A DNA stretch of 64,000 bases from an uncultured Bacilli bacterium. Lineage in GTDB: Bacteria; Bacillota_I; Bacilli_A; RF39; UBA660. The notes beneath the pieces were generated by a model that did not search any database, had not been told where the DNA came from, and was given only the letters and a program-made list of their open reading frames with translations. Location of the stretch: NCBI GenBank assembly GCA_934101645.1, contig CAKORX010000006.1, forward strand, positions 15,333-79,332, given 5' to 3'. Each line of letters begins with the position of its first letter. The first letter of the stretch is position 1. Below are positions 8,439-51,775 of this stretch, in pieces. A program made the position numbers and the translations under genes.

Positions 8439-8789
8439 TATCTTTAGACAAACGCTATAAATTAGTTTTTATAGAGGAAAGTCCATGCTCACTTATCCTG
8501 TGATGGATAAAAATGTTCGTGTTTAAGGAAAAAATAACTTAAAGTAGTAATTTATTACTAACGGCTCTGAAAATTTCTGAAAATGAAATGATTAAGTATA
8601 AAAGTGCCAAAGAGACGAGTCTTTTAGAAATAAAAGAAGTGGAACGTGGTAAACCCCGCGAGTGAGAAACCCAAATTTTGGTAGGGGAGCTAGTCAAAGG
8701 AAACTGAACTAATGGCTGGATGTAGCTTGCTACATAGATAAATGTTTGTCACCATTTTATGGTACAGAACATGGCTTATTAAGATATTA
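8438..8789 (+). ncRNA. rnpB: RNase P RNA, type B (boundaries +/-5 nt)
   Basis: Universal elements AGAGGAAAGTCCATGCTC, GTGCCA, GGAACGTGGTAAACCCC, GAGAAACCCAAATTTTGGTAGGGGA and ACAGAACATGGCTTA. P1 pairing AATATCTT (8437-8444) with AAGATATT (8781-8788). Confidence 0.9.
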
Positions 8790-14520: not shown

Positions 14521-15357
14521 ATGATTCATAGGATGAAATTAGGCAATGAACCATTTGTAGATATTAAAAATGGTACTAAAAAAATTGAAATTAGATTAAA
14601 TGATGAAAAAAGGCGAAGAATAAAAATTAATGATTATTTAGAATTTACAAATGTAGAAACTCTAGAAATAATTTACGTAAAAGTAACAAACTTGCATAAA
14701 TTTTCAACATTTGAAGAATTATTTGAAAAATTTGAATCGTCAATTTTAGGCGGTGGGCAAGCAAAAGATATGTATTTATATTATTCAGCTGCAAGTGAGG
14801 TAAAATATGGAGTAATAGGAATAGAATTAAAATATATCAAATCTATTAATCAAATTATACATAATGATTATAATTTAACTTTAAATGAAGTAACTAAAAC
14901 TATTAGAAGAGCAAAATTAATTGTAGAAAATAATAAAGGTGAAATCCTTTTATGTCATTTGAATAACAATTATTTTCTTGTTGGAGGTCACGTAGAAAAT
15001 AATGAAACTGATGAAGATACTTTAATAAGGGAAGTTAAAGAAGAAACTGGAATATCAGTTGATTTTAAAAATTTATTTCCTATTGCGAATGTAAGTTATA
15101 TAAATAAAGATTATCCTGAGAAAAATATGATAACATATACTAGTTCTAATTATTACTATATTAAATATGATTTAATTCCTGATAAAGAAAAAATAAATTT
15201 AACTCAGGAAGAATTATCTGGTAATTTTGAATTAATATATATTTCAAAAAATGATATTGTAACATTTTTACAAAACTCTATGAAAAAATGTACCAGAAAA
15301 GGGACTTTACAAGACACTATATTTGCTATAGAAACGTATTTTACAACAAAAAAATAA
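14521..15357 (+). CDS. ASCH domain - NUDIX hydrolase fusion protein
   Basis: N-terminus MKLGNEPFVDIKNGTKKIEIRLNDEKRRRIKINDYLEF is ASCH-like. C-terminal Nudix box GGHVENNETDEDTLIREVKEETG. The ATG at 14521 lies 7 nt after GGAG. Confidence 0.6.
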   Translation: MIHRMKLGNEPFVDIKNGTKKIEIRLNDEKRRRIKINDYLEFTNVETLEIIYVKVTNLHKFSTFEELFEKFESSILGGGQAKDMYLYYSAASEVKYGVIGIELKYIKSINQIIHNDYNLTLNEVTKTIRRAKLIVENNKGEILLCHLNNNYFLVGGHVENNETDEDTLIREVKEETGISVDFKNLFPIANVSYINKDYPEKNMITYTSSNYYYIKYDLIPDKEKINLTQEELSGNFELIYISKNDIVTFLQNSMKKCTRKGTLQDTIFAIETYFTTKK

Positions 15358-40061: not shown

Positions 40062-41408
40062 ATAAAAGCAGGATTATATGCTAGAGTTTCAACTGATATT
40101 CAATTAGAGGGTTATTCAATTGATGCACAGAAAGAATTTTTATTAAACTATGCTAAAGCAAAAGAATTTACCGAGTATGAATATTATGTAGATGGTGGTT
40201 ATAGTGGTAAAGACTTGGAACGACCAGCTATTCAAAAACTCATAAGAGATGTTAAAGAACATAAGATAGATTGTGTAATTGTATTTAAACTAGATAGAAT
40301 ATCAAGAAGTCAAAAAGATACTTTATATTTAATTGAAGAGGTATTTAATAAATATAATGTAGGCTTTGTTTCTATGAGAGAAAACTTCGATACTACAACT
40401 CCATTTGGTAAGGCTATGGTTGGTATTTTATCAATATTCGCACAGCTTGAAAGAGAAACAATACTTGAAAGGACGAGAATTGGTATCCAAAAAAGAGCCG
40501 AAAATGGATATTGGAAAGGTGGAGGCAAAAATCCATTCCCTTATATCTATGATAAAAATACAGGAACTCTAGTTCCTGTACCAGAACAAGTAGAGTTACT
40601 ACATAAAATGATAACAATGTATTTAAATGGTTATAGTTTTTTAAAAATTGGTAGTATAGTTGGTATGGATGAAAGTATGGTAGAAAAAAGGATACTTTCA
40701 AGAAGAACATTAGGCATTGTACCATATAAAGATCAAGAGTTTGAAGGAAAACATCAAGCAGTAATATCAGAAGAATTACATAATAAAATAATAGAAACTA
40801 ATAAACTACGAAGTAAAGCAAGAACCGAAAGTCATTATTTGTTATCAGGAAAAATATTTTGTGGACATTGTGGTGCAAAGTATAGATATCAAAAATGGGG
40901 AAAAAGGTTGATTTGTTATTGCTATTCTCAACAAAAAAGTAAACCAAAATTTATTAAAGACCCAAATTGTAAAAATAAAAGATGGGACTCATTTGAAATT
41001 GAAGATGTAATATTAGAAAATTTATTTTCAATGACATTAGATGAAAATATGTTTAGAGAAAAATACGAAATTACACAAGTCGATGTTATTAATGAATATG
41101 AAAAAAGATTTGCAAAGATAAACTTACAAATCAATAACTTAATTAATTTTATTTCAGATGGTATTGCAGTTCCTGACACTAAAAAGAAAATTGAAGAATT
41201 AGAGCAAGAAAAAAAATCAATATTAGAGATAATTGATAATGCTAAAAATAATGAAGATCATAATAGAGGATCATTAGAAAAGTTAAGAAATCTACAAACT
41301 ACTTGGAATAAAATGACATTTGAAGAAAAAAGAATAATAATTATGCACATTGTTGATAAAGTTGTGGTAACTGATAATGATATAGAGATATTTTATAAGA
41401 TATCTTAA
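40062..41408 (+). CDS. large serine recombinase (element 1); the start codon is uncertain or non-canonical
   Basis: The catalytic N-terminus IKAGLYARVSTDIQLEGYSIDAQ is in frame upstream of the first ATG (40215). It also has a resolvase core, a recombinase domain, a Zn-ribbon (CGHCG...C.C) and a coiled coil. Confidence 0.75.
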   Translation: MKAGLYARVSTDIQLEGYSIDAQKEFLLNYAKAKEFTEYEYYVDGGYSGKDLERPAIQKLIRDVKEHKIDCVIVFKLDRISRSQKDTLYLIEEVFNKYNVGFVSMRENFDTTTPFGKAMVGILSIFAQLERETILERTRIGIQKRAENGYWKGGGKNPFPYIYDKNTGTLVPVPEQVELLHKMITMYLNGYSFLKIGSIVGMDESMVEKRILSRRTLGIVPYKDQEFEGKHQAVISEELHNKIIETNKLRSKARTESHYLLSGKIFCGHCGAKYRYQKWGKRLICYCYSQQKSKPKFIKDPNCKNKRWDSFEIEDVILENLFSMTLDENMFREKYEITQVDVINEYEKRFAKINLQINNLINFISDGIAVPDTKKKIEELEQEKKSILEIIDNAKNNEDHNRGSLEKLRNLQTTWNKMTFEEKRIIIMHIVDKVVVTDNDIEIFYKIS

Positions 41409-41421
41409 ATTTTTAAAATAT

Positions 41422-41432
41422 TTTCTCTCCAT
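41422..41432. repeat. right arm of the element 1 terminal inverted repeat
   Basis: See the left arm. Confidence 0.6.
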
Positions 41433-41444
41433 TGCACCATTAGC

Positions 41445-42061
41445 CCAATAAGTGTTAGTGAAATGTTAAGTTTTAAACTAGAAATGATACTTTTATAACT
41501 TGATGGTATTACAAGCTTAGTTAGTATTTGCCATTTGCTAGCCTTAAATGTTTTAAACATTTTTATTTTGATTTTGTCTACATTAATGAATCCATTATAG
41601 ATACTTAGCATACTAACAATTAAATTGATTAAAAGTGCCATTATAATGATGCTTTTTGTATTTGCTCCAAATATAATTATAATAATTGGTCCAAGTGCGA
41701 CTTTAGGTAATGCGTTTAAAATTGTTAAAAATGGTTCAAATATTTTTGAAATAAATGGATATTCATAAAAAATAGTTGCTATAATAAATCCAATTAACGT
41801 ACCTAACAAAAATGATATTATTACTTCATTTAGTGTAGTAAAAATGTGCGGAAATAAATTATTTTGAAGAAATAAACTTTTTATTGTTTTAAATATGTTA
41901 GATGGGCTAGAGTAAATAAATGAATTAATAATCTGTTTTTTTGTTAATATTTCCCAAAGAGAAAAAAATATAATAATAATAAATATTTGAATAAATCTTA
42001 CTAAAAATTTTTCCTTTTTTTGTTTTCTTAAAAAAATCTTTTGTCTATCAGATTGATACAT
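41445..42061 (-). pseudogene. 5' part (about 206 codons) of the NitT/TauT-type ABC permease, truncated by element 1
   Basis: MYQSDRQK...LPKVALGPIIIIIFG...LNISLTLIG. The track ORF then continues for 12 element-derived codons (LMVQWRENILKI*). Confidence 0.8.
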
Positions 42062-42389
42062 CTAAATCCCTCCATATTAAATCATAATAATTTGAAAATT
42101 CTTTGCATTTTCTATTTTCTATTGGGTTACTTTTACCTTTCATTTCTATATTATATATTTTTTTTACAACAGCAGGCCTTTTAGAAAGTACTATAATTCT
42201 ATCACTTAAACTAATTGCTTCAGCTATGTCATGAGTTATCATTATCACGGTTTTATTTTCTTTTTTTATGATATTAAAAACGTCATCCGAAACTTTTAAC
42301 CTTGATTGATAATCAAGTGCTGAAAATGGTTCATCTAAAAGTAAAATATCTGGTTTTATAGCAAGTGTCCTAATAAGAGCAACTCTTTG
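42048..42389 (-). pseudogene. 3' part of the ABC ATPase (Walker B to C-terminus), detached by element 2
   Basis: The minus strand reads (QRVA)LIRTLAIKPDILLLDEPFSALDYQSRLKVSDDVFNIIKKENKTVIMITHDIAEAISLSDRIIVL... without a start codon. It overlaps the permease start by 14 nt. Confidence 0.85.
42378..42389. repeat. 12-bp direct repeat AGCAACTCTTTG at the left junction of element 2 (att core)
   Basis: An identical 12-mer lies at 51260-51271. It encodes QRVA of the ATPase on the minus strand. Confidence 0.75.
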
Positions 42390-42408
42390 AATGAGATAAA
42401 GACACTTT

Positions 42409-45269: not shown

Positions 45270-48200
45270 ATGAATGAAAAAATGACTTTAGAACAATTTC
45301 AACAAATAAAAAATCAATTAATAAGTTTAGCAAATGAGGCTACATATGATGATCCTGATATAGAGCAGAGGATAGTTGAACAATATTTAAAAATTCAAAA
45401 TCAATTATTAGAATATGATTTAAGTGACATTCCATTTGAAGCATGGGATGGTGTGACAATAGTTTCAGATAAAGATCATGTAGTGGATTTTTCTAAAACA
45501 AAAGCTAATATAGATTTTGACTTAATTTCATATTATGGATATGGCAATTTTAGGGGTTGCAATATAAAAAATCTTAATTTACTTGGTAGTTATTTAAATC
45601 CTAGTGAATTTGATGAGGAAACAATTAAAGCTAATTCTACATTATTTTTATCTGATATTTTTAATGAAGAATTTAAACGTAAATATTATAGTAGAACTTT
45701 AAATATTAGTGATTTGACATCATTAACTAGTCAGCAATTAGATGAATTAATGCAAAAAAACATATTGTTACATATAAATCAACAAGAAAGAACTAGCGTT
45801 TTAATAGATACAATCGGTATTGATAAAGCTATAAAGTTTTATAAAAATTTCCCTAAAGAATATGAAAATGTTAATAAAATAGTGCAATTACATAATGATT
45901 TTAGTGGTTTTATACGTGAAAGCAGTAATATACCAACATTTGATGAATTTCTACAACAAATTAAAACTGCTGATATTTCAAAATTAAAGGATATATGTTT
46001 TTCTTATGCAAGAAGACAAATTATAAATTCTAATATAAAAATTATGAAAAATGAATATCCAGAAGCATTTATTCAGGAAAATTCGGATATATTTTTAATT
46101 AATACCAATATTCCACAAGATGTAAAACAAAGATATTTTAATAGGTCTTTATTAATTCAAGATCTTCTTGATTATCCTGATGTTTTTAGCAATATTTCTA
46201 TAGATTATTTCATGGATTTTAGTAATAATATATCACAATTTTTTAGAGATACTTTTGGCATCGGCACATTTCAAGAGTTGATAAAAAAACACCCTGATGT
46301 ATTTAACCATATTTTACAAGAAAATCATATTTATGAATTTAGTCATTTTTTGAAACCAGGAAAAGATGCAGATACTACATTTACAAATGCAGTTAAAGAT
46401 TATTTTTTCAGTTATTGTAATCCTGAACAATTTTTTGCCTATGAAGATCAGATGCCAAATGATAACTTAAAATGGTTATCATCTATGAAATTTAAATTTG
46501 TAAATAAATTAAAAACTAAAGAAGATTTGTTACAATGTGATAATTCAGTTTTAATTTTTGATTATAAACAAAGAAAAGTATTAGCTGGGCTTGGTATTGA
46601 TAATGTAAAAAAATTTGAGCAAGACACAGGCTTTTTTACTCATAAAGAATTTGAGTGGTCAGAAGATTTAAACATGCTTAATTTTTGCTTTAGTTATTAT
46701 GAAGAACTATATTTAATATTTAAAAATGGTAGTTTATCTTATGATGAATTTTTAAATAAATTTGCAGAATACTTGAATGAAGTTCGCAAACACAATGGTT
46801 TTTCTTTACATCAATCTTATGATTGGATTCAAGGTGAATTTAGAGAAAATCATCCTGAAATATTTATGGATTCAAATCTGCCTAAAGAATTAAGAGAAGC
46901 ATTTTATAAAAATAAACTTACTTCAACATTTATATATGAACATCAGGATTATATAAAATATTTGGTAAATAGAGATTTATTAAGTACTATAAATGTTGAT
47001 ATGAAATTATTTGCACCCGGAGAAGCTGATGAAAATGGGTTTGTATTTCCTAGTTACAAAAATTTTGTAAAAGAATATATTTCAAGATATGGTAATGAAA
47101 AGTTTCTACAACTTTGTGTTAAATATGATGGTATTCTTTCAGATATTGAAGTAAATAATTCGAATGATGAAATTGAAGATGAACAAGCCATAGAGCAATC
47201 ATTAAGAAATTCTATTTATGAAAAAATATTAGAAGGAGGCATAGATTATTCATTTCTTAGTAGTAATCAAGACTTTATAATTGAACATCCAGAAATATTT
47301 ATAAATCTCGATAGTCTATCTAATATACCTCAAACTGTTAAAAATGTAATTTTAAAAAATTTTTACAGCGGGAGTCTAAATTTTAATATTATAAAAATAT
47401 ACCCAGAGCTAGTAGATGTACTTAAAGACAAGAATTTATTTGTAGCATTTAATCGTATTGATGGAAGACATTATAATGAAAGAATATATATAGGTCAAAC
47501 TTATGAAGAAAAATATAGTGATTTAGAATTATTGCAAGTATTTGGTAATGAAAAATTTTTGCAATTATGTGCCAAATATGGAAGATACATGGATGGTGTT
47601 ACACAACATTTTAGCAAAAATGTAACTATAAAAAATGGTAAATATATTGATATTAGGCAAGGTAATAAGGAATTAAATTTTGAGGATATTTCCAAGATAA
47701 TTGAAGATATTATTATTCTTGAATGCAAAAAGGGTAATATTGAATATAGACCAGATGATGTACCAGAATTTTTAAAAGAAAAGTCCCCGGAATTGTTTTT
47801 GGAAGAAAATGCTCCTGATGATTTAAAAAAACATTTTTATAATAGTAGTGCGGGTAGTTATCCTTTAACTTTTGAATTATTGCAAAAGAATAAAGATTGG
47901 TTGCCATTTTTAAAAGGAAAAGCCTTAGCTACTTCATTAATTAGGGGTGAAGAGTATAAATATCAATTAAGACAATATTTTGAATTGTTTGGTGAAGAAA
48001 AAGCTATTAAATTAGGAATTAGTAAGCCTGAAACAATTAAAGAAATGCTAGTGGATAATCAGATTGAACTAATGAAACGTTGGTATGATAAAACTGGTGG
48101 TAAGTTTATTCCTGACTATGTTGTAATGCAAAACTTTCCTTTAGAAGAAGCAGATAAATTTTTATCATCTGGTGCAAATTGGAGCAGTTTGATGAAAATT

Positions 48201-50192
48201 AAAAATTTTTCTAAAAAAGCTGAATCAAGGGCAGCTATGCTAAAACTAGCTTATTCATTTGGAGCTTTTGATCAAGACCAAAGAGGCCTAAAAAAAGTAC
48301 AAGATTTATTAACCGGTTTACCTAAAAAGATTGATGCTGATAATGGATTTATTATAGATCAAATTGATTATCAAATAAATCTTTATAGTCAAAAAAATGT
48401 TTTCTATTATAATGAATCAAATAATAGTATTCTATTGCCTGAAGAAAAGGAAAAAGCATATCAACAAATGATTGAATATATAAAGAAACATGATTTTACT
48501 GATTTAATTGATACAGATACTTTACTTAATTTACTTGAATCATTAAGAAAAGAAAATGTTACAATTGATTTCTCTAAGCCAATATTTGCACAGCTTTATA
48601 ATAAAAATGAAGATGGTTCATATTCTTTAAAAATTAATCCTCAAATTTGTCAAAAATCGGCTCAAATTATTAGGGGTATTTTAGAAAAATTTTGGACATT
48701 ACCAATGTTGACACCTGATAAAGCACATCAATTATTTGGTGGATTTTCCTTAACTTATGATCCTGATTTTAGAGAGTTTTTACTTGCCAATTTAGATACA
48801 ATTTTACATGATTCACAACAATATACTGGTCTAGTTTCTAGTGTTCAAAGACAATTTAAAGATATTAAAACAATAAATAGTAATAGATTTTTAACCTGGG
48901 ATTTAGCAATAAGTTTTGTTCAAAAAAATAAATATGAATCAGTTAATGTAGGTAATGAACGAGTTGCTGAAGTATCCGCTATTGCTGGATATAGTCAAAA
49001 TGATTTTAATGTATTACAACAAATTTATAATTATGGTAAACAAAGAACATTTAGTAGTATTCCAAGAATTGAAAATAAAGTAGAAAAAACAAGTGGCAAA
49101 TATACTTATCAAATTTTAAGATTGGATGATCCTTATGCTATGGCAATTGGTACTTTAACAGATTGTTGCCAGGAATTAAATAATTGTGCTGAAGTTTGTA
49201 TGGAGCACAGCATGGTTGATAAAAATGGTCGTATATTTCTTATTAGGGATGAAAATGGTAAAGAAGTTGCACAAAGCTGGGTATGGAGAAACAAAGATGT
49301 GCTATGTTTTGATAATATAGAAATACCAAACAGGACCTTTGATAGAATTGATAAAGAACATCCAGAATTGGGCAGGAAAGGGTTTACTGATGAAATTTTT
49401 GCAATATACAAACAAGCAGCACATGATTTAATAGAAGAAGATGAAAAAGTATATAAAGAGCTATTAAAAAGTGGAAAAATTACGAAAGAACAATATGATG
49501 GTTTAAGATTAGGAAAAATAACTGTTGGATTGGGATACAATGATATAGCGGAATCATTAAAGCAAAACGCAGTAGTTGATGATGGAAACTTATCAAGACC
49601 ATTACCATTTAAAGAACCCGTAAAATTAACACAACGACTATATACAAATGACTCTACGACACAATATATTTTAGAAAAAAGAAATGATAGAAAAGAATTT
49701 AATGGGGAAACGCTTTCTGTGCATAGTGACACTTATACTGAGTATACTGATACAAATTTTACACCACAATTTTTAGACTTTCTAATAAAATTGGAAGCTG
49801 TTACTAAAAATAATTCAAGAGATTTAGGCGTTTCTGCTAGTTATTATAAAGATTCACAACATCTTGTTAGTGACATAGCAATAAGTTATGGATTAAATCC
49901 TAAAACAACAAAAATAATAATGAATCCCAATTTTGCAATTATTTATGATATTAATGGTAATAAACTCAAAATTGGAGATTTATTATTTAACACTAGAGTA
50001 GATAATAAAGAACAACAAATGGACATTGAAAATAATGTTGTTATGCAAATAAGGTTAGCTTTAAATCAGATTTCAAATGGAAATGAAATAGATATATCCG
50101 ATTTAGATGAAAATCAAAAGATAATGTATGAAAAAGCTATAAGTCTAACTGATGAACTAGATAATGAAAGAGGTGTTGGCCATGGAAGATAA
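45270..50192 (+). CDS. 1640-aa modular repeat protein of unknown function (element 2 cargo)
   Basis: Uninterrupted ORF with RBS GGTGGTG. It has internal modules of about 150 aa and a C-terminal Cys/His-rich segment. I could find no signal peptide, TM helix or Walker motif. Confidence 0.7.
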   Translation: MNEKMTLEQFQQIKNQLISLANEATYDDPDIEQRIVEQYLKIQNQLLEYDLSDIPFEAWDGVTIVSDKDHVVDFSKTKANIDFDLISYYGYGNFRGCNIKNLNLLGSYLNPSEFDEETIKANSTLFLSDIFNEEFKRKYYSRTLNISDLTSLTSQQLDELMQKNILLHINQQERTSVLIDTIGIDKAIKFYKNFPKEYENVNKIVQLHNDFSGFIRESSNIPTFDEFLQQIKTADISKLKDICFSYARRQIINSNIKIMKNEYPEAFIQENSDIFLINTNIPQDVKQRYFNRSLLIQDLLDYPDVFSNISIDYFMDFSNNISQFFRDTFGIGTFQELIKKHPDVFNHILQENHIYEFSHFLKPGKDADTTFTNAVKDYFFSYCNPEQFFAYEDQMPNDNLKWLSSMKFKFVNKLKTKEDLLQCDNSVLIFDYKQRKVLAGLGIDNVKKFEQDTGFFTHKEFEWSEDLNMLNFCFSYYEELYLIFKNGSLSYDEFLNKFAEYLNEVRKHNGFSLHQSYDWIQGEFRENHPEIFMDSNLPKELREAFYKNKLTSTFIYEHQDYIKYLVNRDLLSTINVDMKLFAPGEADENGFVFPSYKNFVKEYISRYGNEKFLQLCVKYDGILSDIEVNNSNDEIEDEQAIEQSLRNSIYEKILEGGIDYSFLSSNQDFIIEHPEIFINLDSLSNIPQTVKNVILKNFYSGSLNFNIIKIYPELVDVLKDKNLFVAFNRIDGRHYNERIYIGQTYEEKYSDLELLQVFGNEKFLQLCAKYGRYMDGVTQHFSKNVTIKNGKYIDIRQGNKELNFEDISKIIEDIIILECKKGNIEYRPDDVPEFLKEKSPELFLEENAPDDLKKHFYNSSAGSYPLTFELLQKNKDWLPFLKGKALATSLIRGEEYKYQLRQYFELFGEEKAIKLGISKPETIKEMLVDNQIELMKRWYDKTGGKFIPDYVVMQNFPLEEADKFLSSGANWSSLMKIKNFSKKAESRAAMLKLAYSFGAFDQDQRGLKKVQDLLTGLPKKIDADNGFIIDQIDYQINLYSQKNVFYYNESNNSILLPEEKEKAYQQMIEYIKKHDFTDLIDTDTLLNLLESLRKENVTIDFSKPIFAQLYNKNEDGSYSLKINPQICQKSAQIIRGILEKFWTLPMLTPDKAHQLFGGFSLTYDPDFREFLLANLDTILHDSQQYTGLVSSVQRQFKDIKTINSNRFLTWDLAISFVQKNKYESVNVGNERVAEVSAIAGYSQNDFNVLQQIYNYGKQRTFSSIPRIENKVEKTSGKYTYQILRLDDPYAMAIGTLTDCCQELNNCAEVCMEHSMVDKNGRIFLIRDENGKEVAQSWVWRNKDVLCFDNIEIPNRTFDRIDKEHPELGRKGFTDEIFAIYKQAAHDLIEEDEKVYKELLKSGKITKEQYDGLRLGKITVGLGYNDIAESLKQNAVVDDGNLSRPLPFKEPVKLTQRLYTNDSTTQYILEKRNDRKEFNGETLSVHSDTYTEYTDTNFTPQFLDFLIKLEAVTKNNSRDLGVSASYYKDSQHLVSDIAISYGLNPKTTKIIMNPNFAIIYDINGNKLKIGDLLFNTRVDNKEQQMDIENNVVMQIRLALNQISNGNEIDISDLDENQKIMYEKAISLTDELDNERGVGHGR

Positions 50193-51192
50193 AGATATTA
50201 GCAAAATAATAACAAATGCTTTACAAGTTAATAAAGATAAATTAAGTGAAAATATAAAGTCAATAATTATGCAAATGAAAAAAGCTTTTGAAAGCAATAA
50301 GAAAATTATTGAACAGGCAAATTCTATTGATCAAAAAAATAATAATGGCTTTATTTTAGACTTTAATGTTATTGATAATATATTTTCTAATTTAGAAAAA
50401 GAAATTAGTATAATTTATGGTGATGTTATTCTTTCTCAAAAAGATGAAAATAAAAATATTATATATGGAACTCAAATAATGGATTATGGAAATGTAATTG
50501 TTATTACTGATGGTAATCCATATATTACTATTGAAATGGCCATTAGAAATATAATGGCTGGTAATACAACAATTTTTGCAAACGAAGGTTTTATGTTTGG
50601 CACTAATCAATTATTAATTCAAATAATGCAAAGTGTTTTAGAAATATATAGTTTATCTAAAAATTTAATTCAAATGTATGTATCTGAAAGTTTTGACGAG
50701 GTATTAGCAAATTTTTCTAATATCGATTTAGTAGTTTGTATAGGTAATCGTAGTTTACAAAATCTGATTTTAAATAAATCCAAAAACAAAACTATTGTTA
50801 GTGGGTATGAAAATTTTGATTTGTATATTGAGGATGCAACTCATATAGAATTTCTTAATAAAATGCTTGATACTGGACTAAATATTCAAGTATATATAAA
50901 TAGTGATATTAATTTAGATTATCATAATGCTATAATAGTTAGTGATATCGAAGAAGCAATTGCTCAAATTAATTACAATGGAAGTAGATATAGTTCTGCT
51001 ATATTTACTGCTGAAACAAAAAATGCTTCTAAATTTATTAAAGAAGTAAAATCAAAAATAGTAACAGTTAATACTAGTCCCACTATAGAAAGAATAATTG
51101 ACATAAATCAAACGGACTTAATAAATAAAAAAACTATAATATATCCATTCAGCTTTAAATTAGCTGGTAATAATGAAAAAATACAATTATAG
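50182..51192 (+). CDS. ProA-like (gamma-glutamyl phosphate reductase / ALDH-fold) protein, probably non-catalytic
   Basis: ATG at 50182 lies 7 nt after AGAGGTG and overlaps the stop of the giant ORF by 11 nt. Collinear resemblance to ProA blocks (IIEQANSID..NNG; NVIVITDGNPYITIEMAIRNIMAGNTTIF; IDLVVCIGNRSL; INYNGSRYSSAIFTAETKNASKFIKEVKSKIVTVNTSP). No counterpart of the catalytic-Cys segment. Confidence 0.45.
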   Translation: MEDKDISKIITNALQVNKDKLSENIKSIIMQMKKAFESNKKIIEQANSIDQKNNNGFILDFNVIDNIFSNLEKEISIIYGDVILSQKDENKNIIYGTQIMDYGNVIVITDGNPYITIEMAIRNIMAGNTTIFANEGFMFGTNQLLIQIMQSVLEIYSLSKNLIQMYVSESFDEVLANFSNIDLVVCIGNRSLQNLILNKSKNKTIVSGYENFDLYIEDATHIEFLNKMLDTGLNIQVYINSDINLDYHNAIIVSDIEEAIAQINYNGSRYSSAIFTAETKNASKFIKEVKSKIVTVNTSPTIERIIDINQTDLINKKTIIYPFSFKLAGNNEKIQL

Positions 51193-51259
51193 AAAATTCT
51201 AATAAGTAATATGCTTATTAGATTTTTTATTGTTATAATTGGTGTCCACATTACATTCA

Positions 51260-51271
51260 AGCAACTCTTTG
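51260..51271. repeat. 12-bp direct repeat AGCAACTCTTTG at the right junction of element 2
   Basis: Identical to 42378-42389. Confidence 0.75.
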
Positions 51272-51676
51272 TTTCATGCCACCAGATAAAGATGCCGGAT
51301 ATTTATCCATAAAATCTTTTAATCCGTACGTAGTTAGTAAATTTTTTACATATTCAACATTTTCCTTTGTATCTATTTTTTTGATTTTTAAGCCTAAAAT
51401 TGCATTTTCAAATATGTTTAAATAGGGAAGAAGAGCATCTTCTTGAAGCATATATCCTATAATTGGTTTTTCTTTAGAAAAAATCATTTTCCCATTATAA
51501 TTTTCAAGTCCTGCAATAATGTTTAATAATGTTGATTTACCACAACCAGATGAACCGACAATTGCAATAAATTCATTTTCAAACACATCAAAAGAGATAT
51601 CATCTATAGCATTTACTTCACCCTTGGGTGTATTAAATATTTTGTTAATATTTTGTAAACTTAAAAGTGGTTTCAT
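51260..51676 (-). pseudogene. 5' part of the ABC ATPase (Walker A to ABC signature), truncated by element 2
   Basis: MKPLLSLQNINKIF..., Walker A GSSGCGKST, Q-loop, and [10 protein letters not shown] followed by an element-derived TGA. ATG at 51676 follows AGGTGA. Confidence 0.85.
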
Positions 51677-51775
51677 TTTTATCACCTATGATATTTTATT
51701 CAACTAATAAATTATGAACTATTGAAATAGTTTAGAAGTATATTTAAAAAGTTTAATAATTATGTTATATTTATA

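Follow-up and report, generated by a model that had tools for sequence, protein, structure and literature searches.

The giant gene and the architecture of its product

The window analyzed in this study is a stretch of 64,000 nucleotides (nt) from an uncultured Bacilli bacterium (GTDB lineage Bacteria; Bacillota_I; Bacilli_A; RF39; UBA660), corresponding to positions 15,333 to 79,332 of contig CAKORX010000006.1 in assembly GCA_934101645.1. It is very AT-rich (G+C content of approximately 25%) and harbors an 8.88-kb element bounded by 12-bp direct repeats. The element carries a giant open reading frame (ORF), directly followed by a gene for a relative of the proline-pathway enzyme ProA (Table 1). 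These two genes are the subject of the present analysis. As stated in a preliminary description of this DNA, the giant ORF is a single one and makes up 55% of the element. The encoded protein is acidic (pI 5.05, net charge -59) and, as also described there, contains no signal peptide, transmembrane helix or Walker A motif (maximal Kyte-Doolittle mean over 19 amino acids (aa), 0.7). It could well be a soluble cytoplasmic enzyme-scaffold protein, which is part of the interpretation preferred below. No riboswitch or T-box was found 5' of the giant gene in 13 loci, and a scan for promoters and terminators gave fewer matches than the shuffled expectation.

Table 1. Features of the element and its insertion site, with the predicted regions of the giant protein
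Feature	Position	Strand	Remarks
Split ABC-transporter ATPase gene, C-terminal part	42048..42392	-	continues QRVALIRTLAIKPDILLLDEPFSALD...; permease gene then follows
Left 12-bp direct repeat AGCAACTCTTTG, att core	42378-42389		matches right copy
RhuM-family (PDC-S23-like) gene, truncated, 267 aa	42555..43358	-	PADLOC candidate PDC-S23, E = 7e-92
Large serine recombinase, 528 aa	43417..45003	-	Resolvase + Recombinase + Zn_ribbon_recom + DUF4368
Giant ORF, 1640 aa	45270..50192	+	ATG start, single uninterrupted frame; member of an uncharacterised family
Cap with short beta-solenoid	residues 1-230	+	strongly conserved; part of the main architecture
Most conserved N-terminal stretch	45417..45584 (about residues 50-105)	+	pentapeptide-like, short beta-solenoid-like turns
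Helical repeat module 1	45957..46469 (residues 230-400)	+	PEAF at 264; hhalign against modules 2-4, E about 1e-11
Helical repeat module 2	46767..47249 (residues 500-660)	+	HPEIF 529, YGNEKFLQLC 607
Helical repeat module 3	47232..47669 (residues 655-800)	+	HPEIF 674, FGNEKFLQLC 758
Helical repeat module 4	47667..48119 (residues 800-950)	+	SPELF 840, FGEEKAIKLG 907
Helical linker and helical C0 region	48117..49049 (residues 950-1260)	+	variable loop at residues 1041-1080; precedes the catalytic-looking core
C1, predicted first GNAT-like lobe	49047..49589 (residues 1260-1440)	+	contains CCQ / E..M.HS / QSWxWRN / CFDNxExP cluster
C2, predicted second beta-rich GNAT-like lobe	49587..50189 (residues 1440-1640)	+	AlphaFold2 model
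ProA-like gene, pseudoenzyme	50182..51192	+	336 aa from conserved start; frame open from 50164
Split ATPase gene, N-terminal part	51257..51685	-	ends ...LSGGMKQRVA*
Right 12-bp direct repeat AGCAACTCTTTG, att core	51260-51271		matches left copy

Conservation in the giant family runs over the full length of the protein and peaks at residues 41-160. The conserved N-terminal stretch reads DLSDIPFEAW...VDFSKTKANIDF...NFRGCNIKNL, in which L51, S52, I54, P55, A79, N80, G96, C97 and N101 are invariant or nearly so. An AlphaFold2 model of residues 1-1060, built with the family alignment, is mostly alpha-helical (predicted local distance difference test score (pLDDT) 87.9) and shows about six very short strands at residues 62-100. 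Membership in the pentapeptide-repeat proteins was rejected, because the giant protein does not match the Pfam profile Pentapeptide and the model contains no long right-handed beta-helix. A Foldseek comparison of residues 1-1060 with the PDB gave no significant match, the best being importin-type alpha-solenoids at E = 0.5.

The diverged modules of about 150 aa that had been proposed for this region were confirmed by profile-profile comparison. For this, a family alignment of 83 sequences was cut into segments, which were compared with hhalign. Four segments match one another with E-values between 1e-11 and 3e-25, the closest being module 2 with module 3 (E = 3e-25) and with module 4 (E = 4e-19). 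Among the control segments, unrelated ones remained at E > 0.01, and residues 400-500 and 950-1100 match nothing apart from trivial overlap. BLAST against a 41%-identical homologue yielded off-diagonal high-scoring segment pairs with E = 2e-9 and 3e-9. Together, the module matches and the off-diagonal pairs show that the modular repeat is genuine and has four copies. The two module motifs are located exactly where they had been placed, PE[IAL]F...P..LK..FY at residues 264, 529, 674 and 840, and [YF]G.EK at residues 607, 758 and 907.

The C-terminal region (residues 1041-1640) was modeled by AlphaFold2 as two beta-rich lobes with a pLDDT of 87.2. In C1 (residues 1268-1433), the predicted order of strands (b) and helices (a), b-b-a-a-b-b-b-a-a-b-a, fits that of the GNAT core, for which b1-a1-a2-b2-b3-b4-a3-b5-a4-b6 was used as criterion. 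All leading Foldseek matches of the C-terminal model in the PDB are GNATs, with weak E-values of 7e-3 to 0.15 and with probabilities of up to 0.94-0.98 for single-domain GNATs. The longest of these alignments (350-405 columns, probabilities 0.28-0.85) were obtained with the two-domain GNATs 3tt2, VipF, which is a Legionella effector, and FemX. In BFVD, GNAT acetyltransferases were matched with probabilities of up to 1.00. The model tentatively suggests that the C-terminus is a GNAT-fold, dupli-GNAT-like domain. The protein had been described as enzymatically opaque, which probably does not hold, as its C-terminus models as a tandem GNAT-like domain.

A Cys/His cluster had been noticed in the C-terminal part, and it was found at residues 1297-1352 (nt 49158-49325), where it forms the densest invariant block of the C-terminal half. 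C1299, C1300, Q1301, E1308, M1311, H1313, S1314 and G1320 are invariant in the family, as are Q1335-S-W, W1339-R-N and C1346-F-D-N-x-E-x-P, including in the divergent group 3 described below; C1306 and C1310 are not conserved. The cluster maps to the a1-a2 loop, b3 and b4 of C1. In GNATs, these elements shape the cleft for the acceptor and the acyl donor. The Q/RxxGxG/A loop that follows b4 and holds the pyrophosphate of coenzyme A (CoA) is absent from the family, no GxG/A being present; instead, a loop of variable length and a conserved R..FTDE...IYK.AA occur on the C-terminal side of CFDNIEIP. Because this loop is absent, canonical binding of acetyl-CoA by the C-terminus is probably not to be expected. 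No Pfam Acetyltransf_* profile matched at E <= 10, neither in fragments of the giant protein nor in 15 other family members. With tandem GNATs of the FemX, VipF and 3tt2 type, the giant C-terminus would share two consecutive GNAT-like lobes, as judged from the predicted fold. FemX-type enzymes, which depend on aminoacyl-tRNA, likewise lack a CoA P-loop motif. In contrast to all of these, the giant protein shows no sequence-profile similarity to them, has motifs of its own (CCQ, QSWxWRN and CFDNxExP), is fused to an N-terminal region of 1,100 aa without a PDB match and is paired with a dead ProA.

A resemblance of the giant protein to PcfJ-like domains had also been suggested, but both the Pfam and the profile-profile tests were negative. 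PF14284 does not match the giant protein even at E <= 10; the control, PcfJ of pCF10, matches this profile at E = 1.1e-43. In hhalign, the profile of the C-terminal family reached a probability of 0.08 with pCF10 PcfJ. Against an alignment of nine PcfJ sequences, the probability was 0.07 for the whole and 0.4 for core versus core. This alignment combined pCF10 PcfJ with eight diverse phage PcfJ-like proteins found by tblastn, a first homologue search having returned close Enterococcus sequences only. The residues that are invariant in PcfJ (EG..L.HCV..Y...R...T.E) are not matched in the giant family, and membership was rejected on the basis of the profile-profile comparison. PcfJ (PF14284; pCF10, Herelleviridae phages) resembles the giant protein in being uncharacterised, in forming the C-terminal domain of large proteins and in weak Foldseek matches, namely to four 'PcfJ-like' phage proteins in BFVD (E = 7.6e-4, 7e-3, 1.2e-2 and 0.4). 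A very distant common fold is possible in view of these structural matches. The phage PcfJ-like genes (L097-L105) usually adjoin genes of DNA replication or nucleotide metabolism, such as those for thymidylate synthase, dUTPase, DNA polymerase, helicase loader, gyrase and guanylate kinase, and pCF10 PcfJ is located next to an AcrIIA9-family gene (L016:15874-17217).

The start codon of the ProA-like gene that is conserved among homologues is ATG 50182 (MEDKD...) and not position 50164; a ribosome-binding site, AGAGGTG, lies 6 nt upstream. From this start, the gene overlaps the giant ORF by 11 nt, as it does in the loci L001 and L003. The protein matches Pfam Aldedh at E = 1e-6 and also ProA structures in the PDB, and its score of 67.1 bits with the NCBIfam ProA model, against a cutoff of 289, does not reach the equivalog level. 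An alignment of 63 partner sequences (53 after the redundancy filter of hhalign) was compared with E. coli ProA. The match (97.8%, E = 1e-12, 274 columns) establishes homology within the aldehyde dehydrogenase (ALDH) superfamily; it covers the NADP-binding domain as well as the C-terminal portion of the catalytic one. However, the E. coli catalytic motif STC253NTVETLLV falls into an alignment gap, which is followed by a further deletion of 47 aa. The same gap is present against 8zok and 1o20, and in longer partner variants of 439 aa. Across the partner family, the C-N-x-x-E catalytic-cysteine motif is deleted with approximately 55-90 adjacent residues, and the sole cysteine of the protein in the window aligns to a non-catalytic position. 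Unlike ProA, the partner is also not encoded beside proB. As judged from these alignments, the ProA-like partner is a pseudoenzyme. Together with the 11-nt overlap, the missing catalytic segment agrees with the earlier statement that the giant gene is translationally coupled to a pseudo-enzyme.

Distribution of the family and conservation of the gene pair

Homologues of the giant protein form 83 clusters at 90% identity; nearly all are 1,400-1,900 aa long, and Pfam recognises no domain in any of them. With a profile built from residues 1100-1640, 2,792 representative clusters (50% identity) were matched at E <= 1e-3 and 363 at E <= 1e-30, and at least 187 GTDB species encode a relative. The hosts are nearly all uncultured Bacilli, 'Tenericutes' or Clostridia of human and animal guts, represented by metagenome-assembled genomes (MAGs), for example Clostridium sp. 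CAG:710, Clostridium sp. CAG:914 and Mycoplasma sp. CAG:877. A homologue search with the N-terminal part alone returned six fragments only. Nothing meaningful was found for the giant protein in Pfam (whole protein and five fragments, E <= 10), NCBIfam, PHROGs, PADLOC and the PDB sequences (single sequence and profile), and Pfam gave nothing for 15 other family members, the most divergent included. Literature searches on PcfJ, ProA-like and RF39 giant proteins returned nothing relevant.

No member of the giant family was detected in plasmids by tblastn or among 2.9 million viral contigs of IMG/VR, and tblastn against phages returned one distant cyanophage domain only. A phage structural protein was rejected as an explanation on these grounds. 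The C1 core is also present in ORF68 of Microcystis phage MaMV-DC (L015:1031-3124; hhalign 98%, E = 6.5e-14), and the uncharacterised phage protein A0A7G9A3X2 in BFVD was matched by Foldseek at E = 6e-11. Both share the CCQ, AQSWxW and LCFDNxE core with the giant protein, but they comprise only 650-700 aa, lack the repeat scaffold and do not conserve M.HS.

Gene neighbourhoods were counted in the 80 best GTDB loci. In about 65 of the 80 species, a ProA-like ORF is located directly 3' of the giant gene, with overlapping or abutting ends. In the remaining loci, the contig ends, two giant genes stand in tandem (twice), the ProA-like gene precedes the giant gene (once, L089) or no ProA-like gene was detected (five loci). 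In the divergent group 3 (P0079-81), a gene for 337-358 aa lies directly upstream and is weakly ProA-like (BLASTP, E = 0.004-0.005). The preliminary description had asked whether the giant gene always occurs together with a ProA-like gene and a serine recombinase. The link to the ProA-like gene is strongly conserved, if not invariable; as to the serine recombinase, only 6 of the 80 loci contain one at a distance of up to 8 kb. The conserved unit is therefore the two-gene pair and not the mobile element. Carriage on a mobile element, as in the window, is occasional, and most loci lie among ordinary chromosomal genes. No characterised family took in the giant protein, and its linkage to the downstream gene proved to be conserved.

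The contexts of the pair differ between lineages, and some MAGs contain two or three giant paralogues, including tandem copies. The 147 flanking ORFs from 45 species represent 131 Pfam families, of which ABC_tran (5) and Resolvase (4) are the commonest. The only PADLOC models matching several flanking ORFs are mad3/mad8, AriA, RmrA, HTH_VI and the like, which are taken to be generic matches of recombinase, ATPase and helix-turn-helix type and not defence systems. In several species, a tRNA gene is found a few hundred bases to about 3 kb 3' of the pair (L030:10894-10965, L001:16486-16557, L018:13934-14004 and L026:13828-13899), which could mark the edge of a tRNA-integrated island. Genes of the alkaline-phosphatase superfamily (Pfam Metalloenzyme, Phosphodiest or iPGM_N) adjoin giant genes from each of the three groups, although the surroundings otherwise differ (L013 (6398-7918), L014, L106 (10196-11365), L107 (9777-10877) and L010 (16777-17940)); this recurrence may be a coincidence.

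A sister group (group 2: P0060, P0062-78, P0082 and P0083; loci L007, L008, L106-L108 and L021:10679-15115) shares the first approximately 860 aa with the giant protein, that is the cap and the scaffold up to module 4, at 41% identity. Its C-terminus has no detectable similarity to the GNAT-type C-terminus. The last approximately 250 aa contain the invariant residues G1424-S1425...D1437-x-D1439...D1494-x-D1496 (GS-x11-DxD...DxD). This pattern is the signature hG[GS]x9-13Dx[DE] of Pol-beta-type nucleotidyltransferases (NTases). Sub-threshold Pfam matches at this site are NTP_transf_2 (E = 0.012) and SMODS (E = 0.022). The signature suggests that the C-terminus of the sister group is nucleotidyltransferase-like. 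At the sister-group loci, neither a ProA-like gene nor any other conserved partner adjoins the giant gene. A 344-aa gene 5' of P0067 was rejected as a candidate, since it is unrelated to the ProA-like proteins and absent from the other group-2 loci. One genome contains a GNAT-type giant gene, a ProA-like gene and an NTase-type giant gene in tandem. As the ProA-like gene is found beside the GNAT-type and not the NTase-type genes, the partner tracks the GNAT-type C-terminus and not the scaffold.

The carrier element in the window

The element is inserted into a gene for an NMT1-type ABC ATPase, in the QRVA codons directly after the LSGG signature motif. At both junctions, AGCAACTCTTTG corresponds to these codons, read on the opposite strand. 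Four genes lie within the insert, the truncated RhuM-family gene, the serine recombinase, the giant gene and the ProA-like gene. The best NCBIfam matches of the recombinase are XisF and Ccr, all far below cutoff. The domain set of the recombinase, the target gene split at a defined site and the short flanking repeats are those of a large-serine-recombinase element. With SCCmec (Ccr), XisF/fdxN and skin/SpoIVCA-type elements, the carrier shares a large recombinase, short end repeats and the precise split of a host gene. Unlike these, it is tiny (8.9 kb) and its cargo consists essentially of the giant/ProA-like pair. For the giant family, loci without such an element are moreover the rule.

A MAG of 'uncultured Bacilli' from the Hadza gut, L017, contains the same insertion, with 97.0% identity to the window over 17.6 kb. 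This strain has an intact RhuM+Fic version of 320 aa (L017:1830-2792), and the comparison with the 267 aa in the window indicates that the window copy has lost its Fic/DOC C-terminus, apparently by a frameshift or stop. In another species (L003; P0026, 57% identical), an element with a recombinase, a giant and a ProA-like gene is inserted at the same codons in the ATPase orthologue (about 5990 and about 16470). Reuse of this target in two species shows that the element is site-specific. An exact 27-mer of the reconstructed empty site was not found in JGI metagenome contigs. With the element in place, no continuous ATPase can be translated from the split gene. The transporter is thus either lost or regained only when the element is excised, as in intervening elements. 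A compact, site-specific recombinase vehicle that is aimed at a conserved ABC-ATPase motif may serve as an integration tool.

At its 3' end, the permease gene (41405-42061, -) adjoins a gene for a second large serine recombinase (40215-41408, +), which is truncated at the N-terminus and matches the Resolvase profile from position 48 onwards. Of the 184 positions of BPD_transp_1, the permease matches 1-127 only. A further insertion into the same ABC operon, independent of the first, is suggested by these truncations; it had been listed as 'element 1' in the preliminary description. The window also contains a class B RNase P RNA gene and five tRNA genes (8440-8783 and 2255-34092), which is more in keeping with a chromosome of Bacillota than with a plasmid or phage.

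Possible functions of the giant/ProA-like pair

Among the sources searched, no curated family, solved structure or paper covers the giant protein, its combination with a dead ProA or the sister group of NTase type. The pair is rated as lying outside the known kinds of system, with the resemblance to the GNAT fold as the only known link, and its function is inferred. Our tentatively preferred interpretation, held with slightly less than even confidence, is that of a scaffolded GNAT-fold transferase with a pseudoenzyme subunit. The four helical modules (residues 230-950) would provide a platform for a macromolecular substrate or partner. In the predicted tandem GNAT fold (residues 1260-1640), the invariant cluster would lie where GNATs hold the acceptor and the acyl donor. 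The reaction may be the transfer of an acyl or aminoacyl group from a donor that is other than acetyl-CoA, or that is bound in a different manner. The ProA-like partner, which keeps the ALDH fold, would act as a non-catalytic subunit with a regulatory, substrate-presenting or neutralising task. The two proteins would work as an obligate pair. The pair is also the evolutionary unit, for which the 8.9-kb element is merely the vehicle in this genome.

Several points weigh against this interpretation. The GNAT assignment comes from structure prediction and from Foldseek matches with weak E-values, and no sequence profile ties the protein to GNAT families. Since the CoA-binding motif is absent, the C-terminal domain could be non-catalytic. 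A physical complex of the giant and the ProA-like protein is likewise an inferred property. PADLOC-DB v2 has no family for either protein, no member was detected in the IMG/VR contigs, and neither a third conserved gene nor a defence island was found among the 147 flanking ORFs, which are heterogeneous and mostly housekeeping genes. In addition, the sister group occupies stable chromosomal contexts in sporeformers, beside tyrS/pheST or uvrC/mutL, or between sirA and uvrC. These housekeeping contexts imply that the family may serve normal physiology.

We lean towards an accessory or conflict-type role over one in core physiology and keep toxin, defence and physiological functions side by side. 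The patchy multi-copy distribution, the mobile carriage, the phage homologues of the core and the alternative enzymatic heads point to an accessory role. The heterogeneous, largely ordinary chromosomal neighbourhoods and the absence from IMG/VR and PADLOC point to physiology.

Of the alternatives, a physiological role survives best, and we regard it as rather unlikely. The giant protein would then be a lineage-specific scaffold or enzyme of uncultured gut Bacilli and Clostridia, for example for the modification of envelope precursors or for a translation-related modification, and its mobile carriage would be incidental. A distribution over at least 187 species, together with strong purifying conservation over the whole length, would be expected in this case, as would the predominance of loci among housekeeping genes, the synteny of the NTase-type paralogue by tyrS/pheST or between sirA and uvrC in sporeformers, and the lack of members in viral contigs. 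However, a genomic position that varies by lineage, several paralogues per genome and the residence of the pair in a recombinase element by which a transporter gene is inactivated are typical of accessory genes and weigh against such a role.

A toxin-antitoxin or toxin-immunity pair is considered improbable. According to this explanation, the giant protein would be a toxic GNAT-fold transferase, acting for example on charged tRNA like TacT and AtaT, the dead ProA would be its neutraliser, and the NTase-type sisters would be analogous to toxins of the MenT/AbiEii type. GNAT and NTase folds are both known among tRNA-targeting toxins. The resemblance of both C-terminal classes to such folds, the strict tracking of the GNAT-type C-terminus by a translationally coupled partner and the multi-copy, patchy and occasionally mobile distribution are consistent with this explanation. 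However, a 'toxin' of 1,640 aa followed by an 'antitoxin' of 336 aa is atypical in order and sizes, neither a DNA-binding antitoxin domain nor a secretion or trafficking domain is present, and for the NTase-type proteins a conserved partner is missing altogether. The N-termini of the groups are only 41% identical, which indicates an old divergence rather than recent cassette swapping. Membership in the polymorphic toxins was rejected for the same low identity and for the absence of a signal peptide, transmembrane helix and known trafficking domain.

Defence against phages or mobile elements is an equally unlikely function, in which the scaffold would sense the invader, the GNAT-fold domain would be the effector and the ProA-like protein a regulator or NADP(H) sensor. 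A large, sensor-like repeat region with a swappable C-terminal enzyme would resemble many defence proteins; the element also carries the RhuM/PDC-S23-like gene, and the distribution is variable and multi-copy. Against this, neither protein matches PADLOC, no defence family is enriched among the 147 flanking genes of 45 species, and no NTPase or other known sensor module is present. The earlier suggestion of an undescribed system such as defence stands insofar as the protein belongs to no characterised family; positive evidence for defence was found neither with PADLOC nor in the flanks. A divergent PcfJ-like C-terminus, which would make the giant protein an anti-defence or establishment factor of mobile elements, is highly improbable: the four Foldseek matches in BFVD, the loose pattern G..L..(H/C)C...G..I.FIR...RN..V and the AcrIIA9-family neighbour of pCF10 PcfJ are outweighed by the missing PF14284 match, the hhalign probabilities of 0.07-0.4, the unmatched invariants and the location of most family members off mobile elements.

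The scaffolded transferase with its pseudoenzyme subunit can be extended to a more specific proposal, which is speculative and has a low probability. The pair would be an undescribed two-component system of gut Bacillota, in which a dupli-GNAT transferase without a P-loop acts on a macromolecular target offered by the scaffold, plausibly a charged tRNA at its 3' end or a different activated-acyl carrier. The pseudoenzyme with its ALDH fold would gate this reaction, and the sisters would swap in a Pol-beta NTase on the same target. The proteins would then constitute a new family of modifiers that are scaffolded, act on nucleic acids or proteins and are used in conflicts within genomes or with phages.

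The giant/ProA-like pair unites a scaffold unmatched in the PDB, a predicted GNAT-fold double domain without the CoA loop and a dead partner from the proline pathway, which is an undescribed combination. For a dead member of the ALDH family to serve as a dedicated subunit would be unusual in itself. Once the activity of the giant protein is worked out, thousands of giant genes now labelled 'hypothetical' in gut metagenomes would receive an annotation, and a novel transferase chemistry or a novel logic of toxins or defence could emerge.

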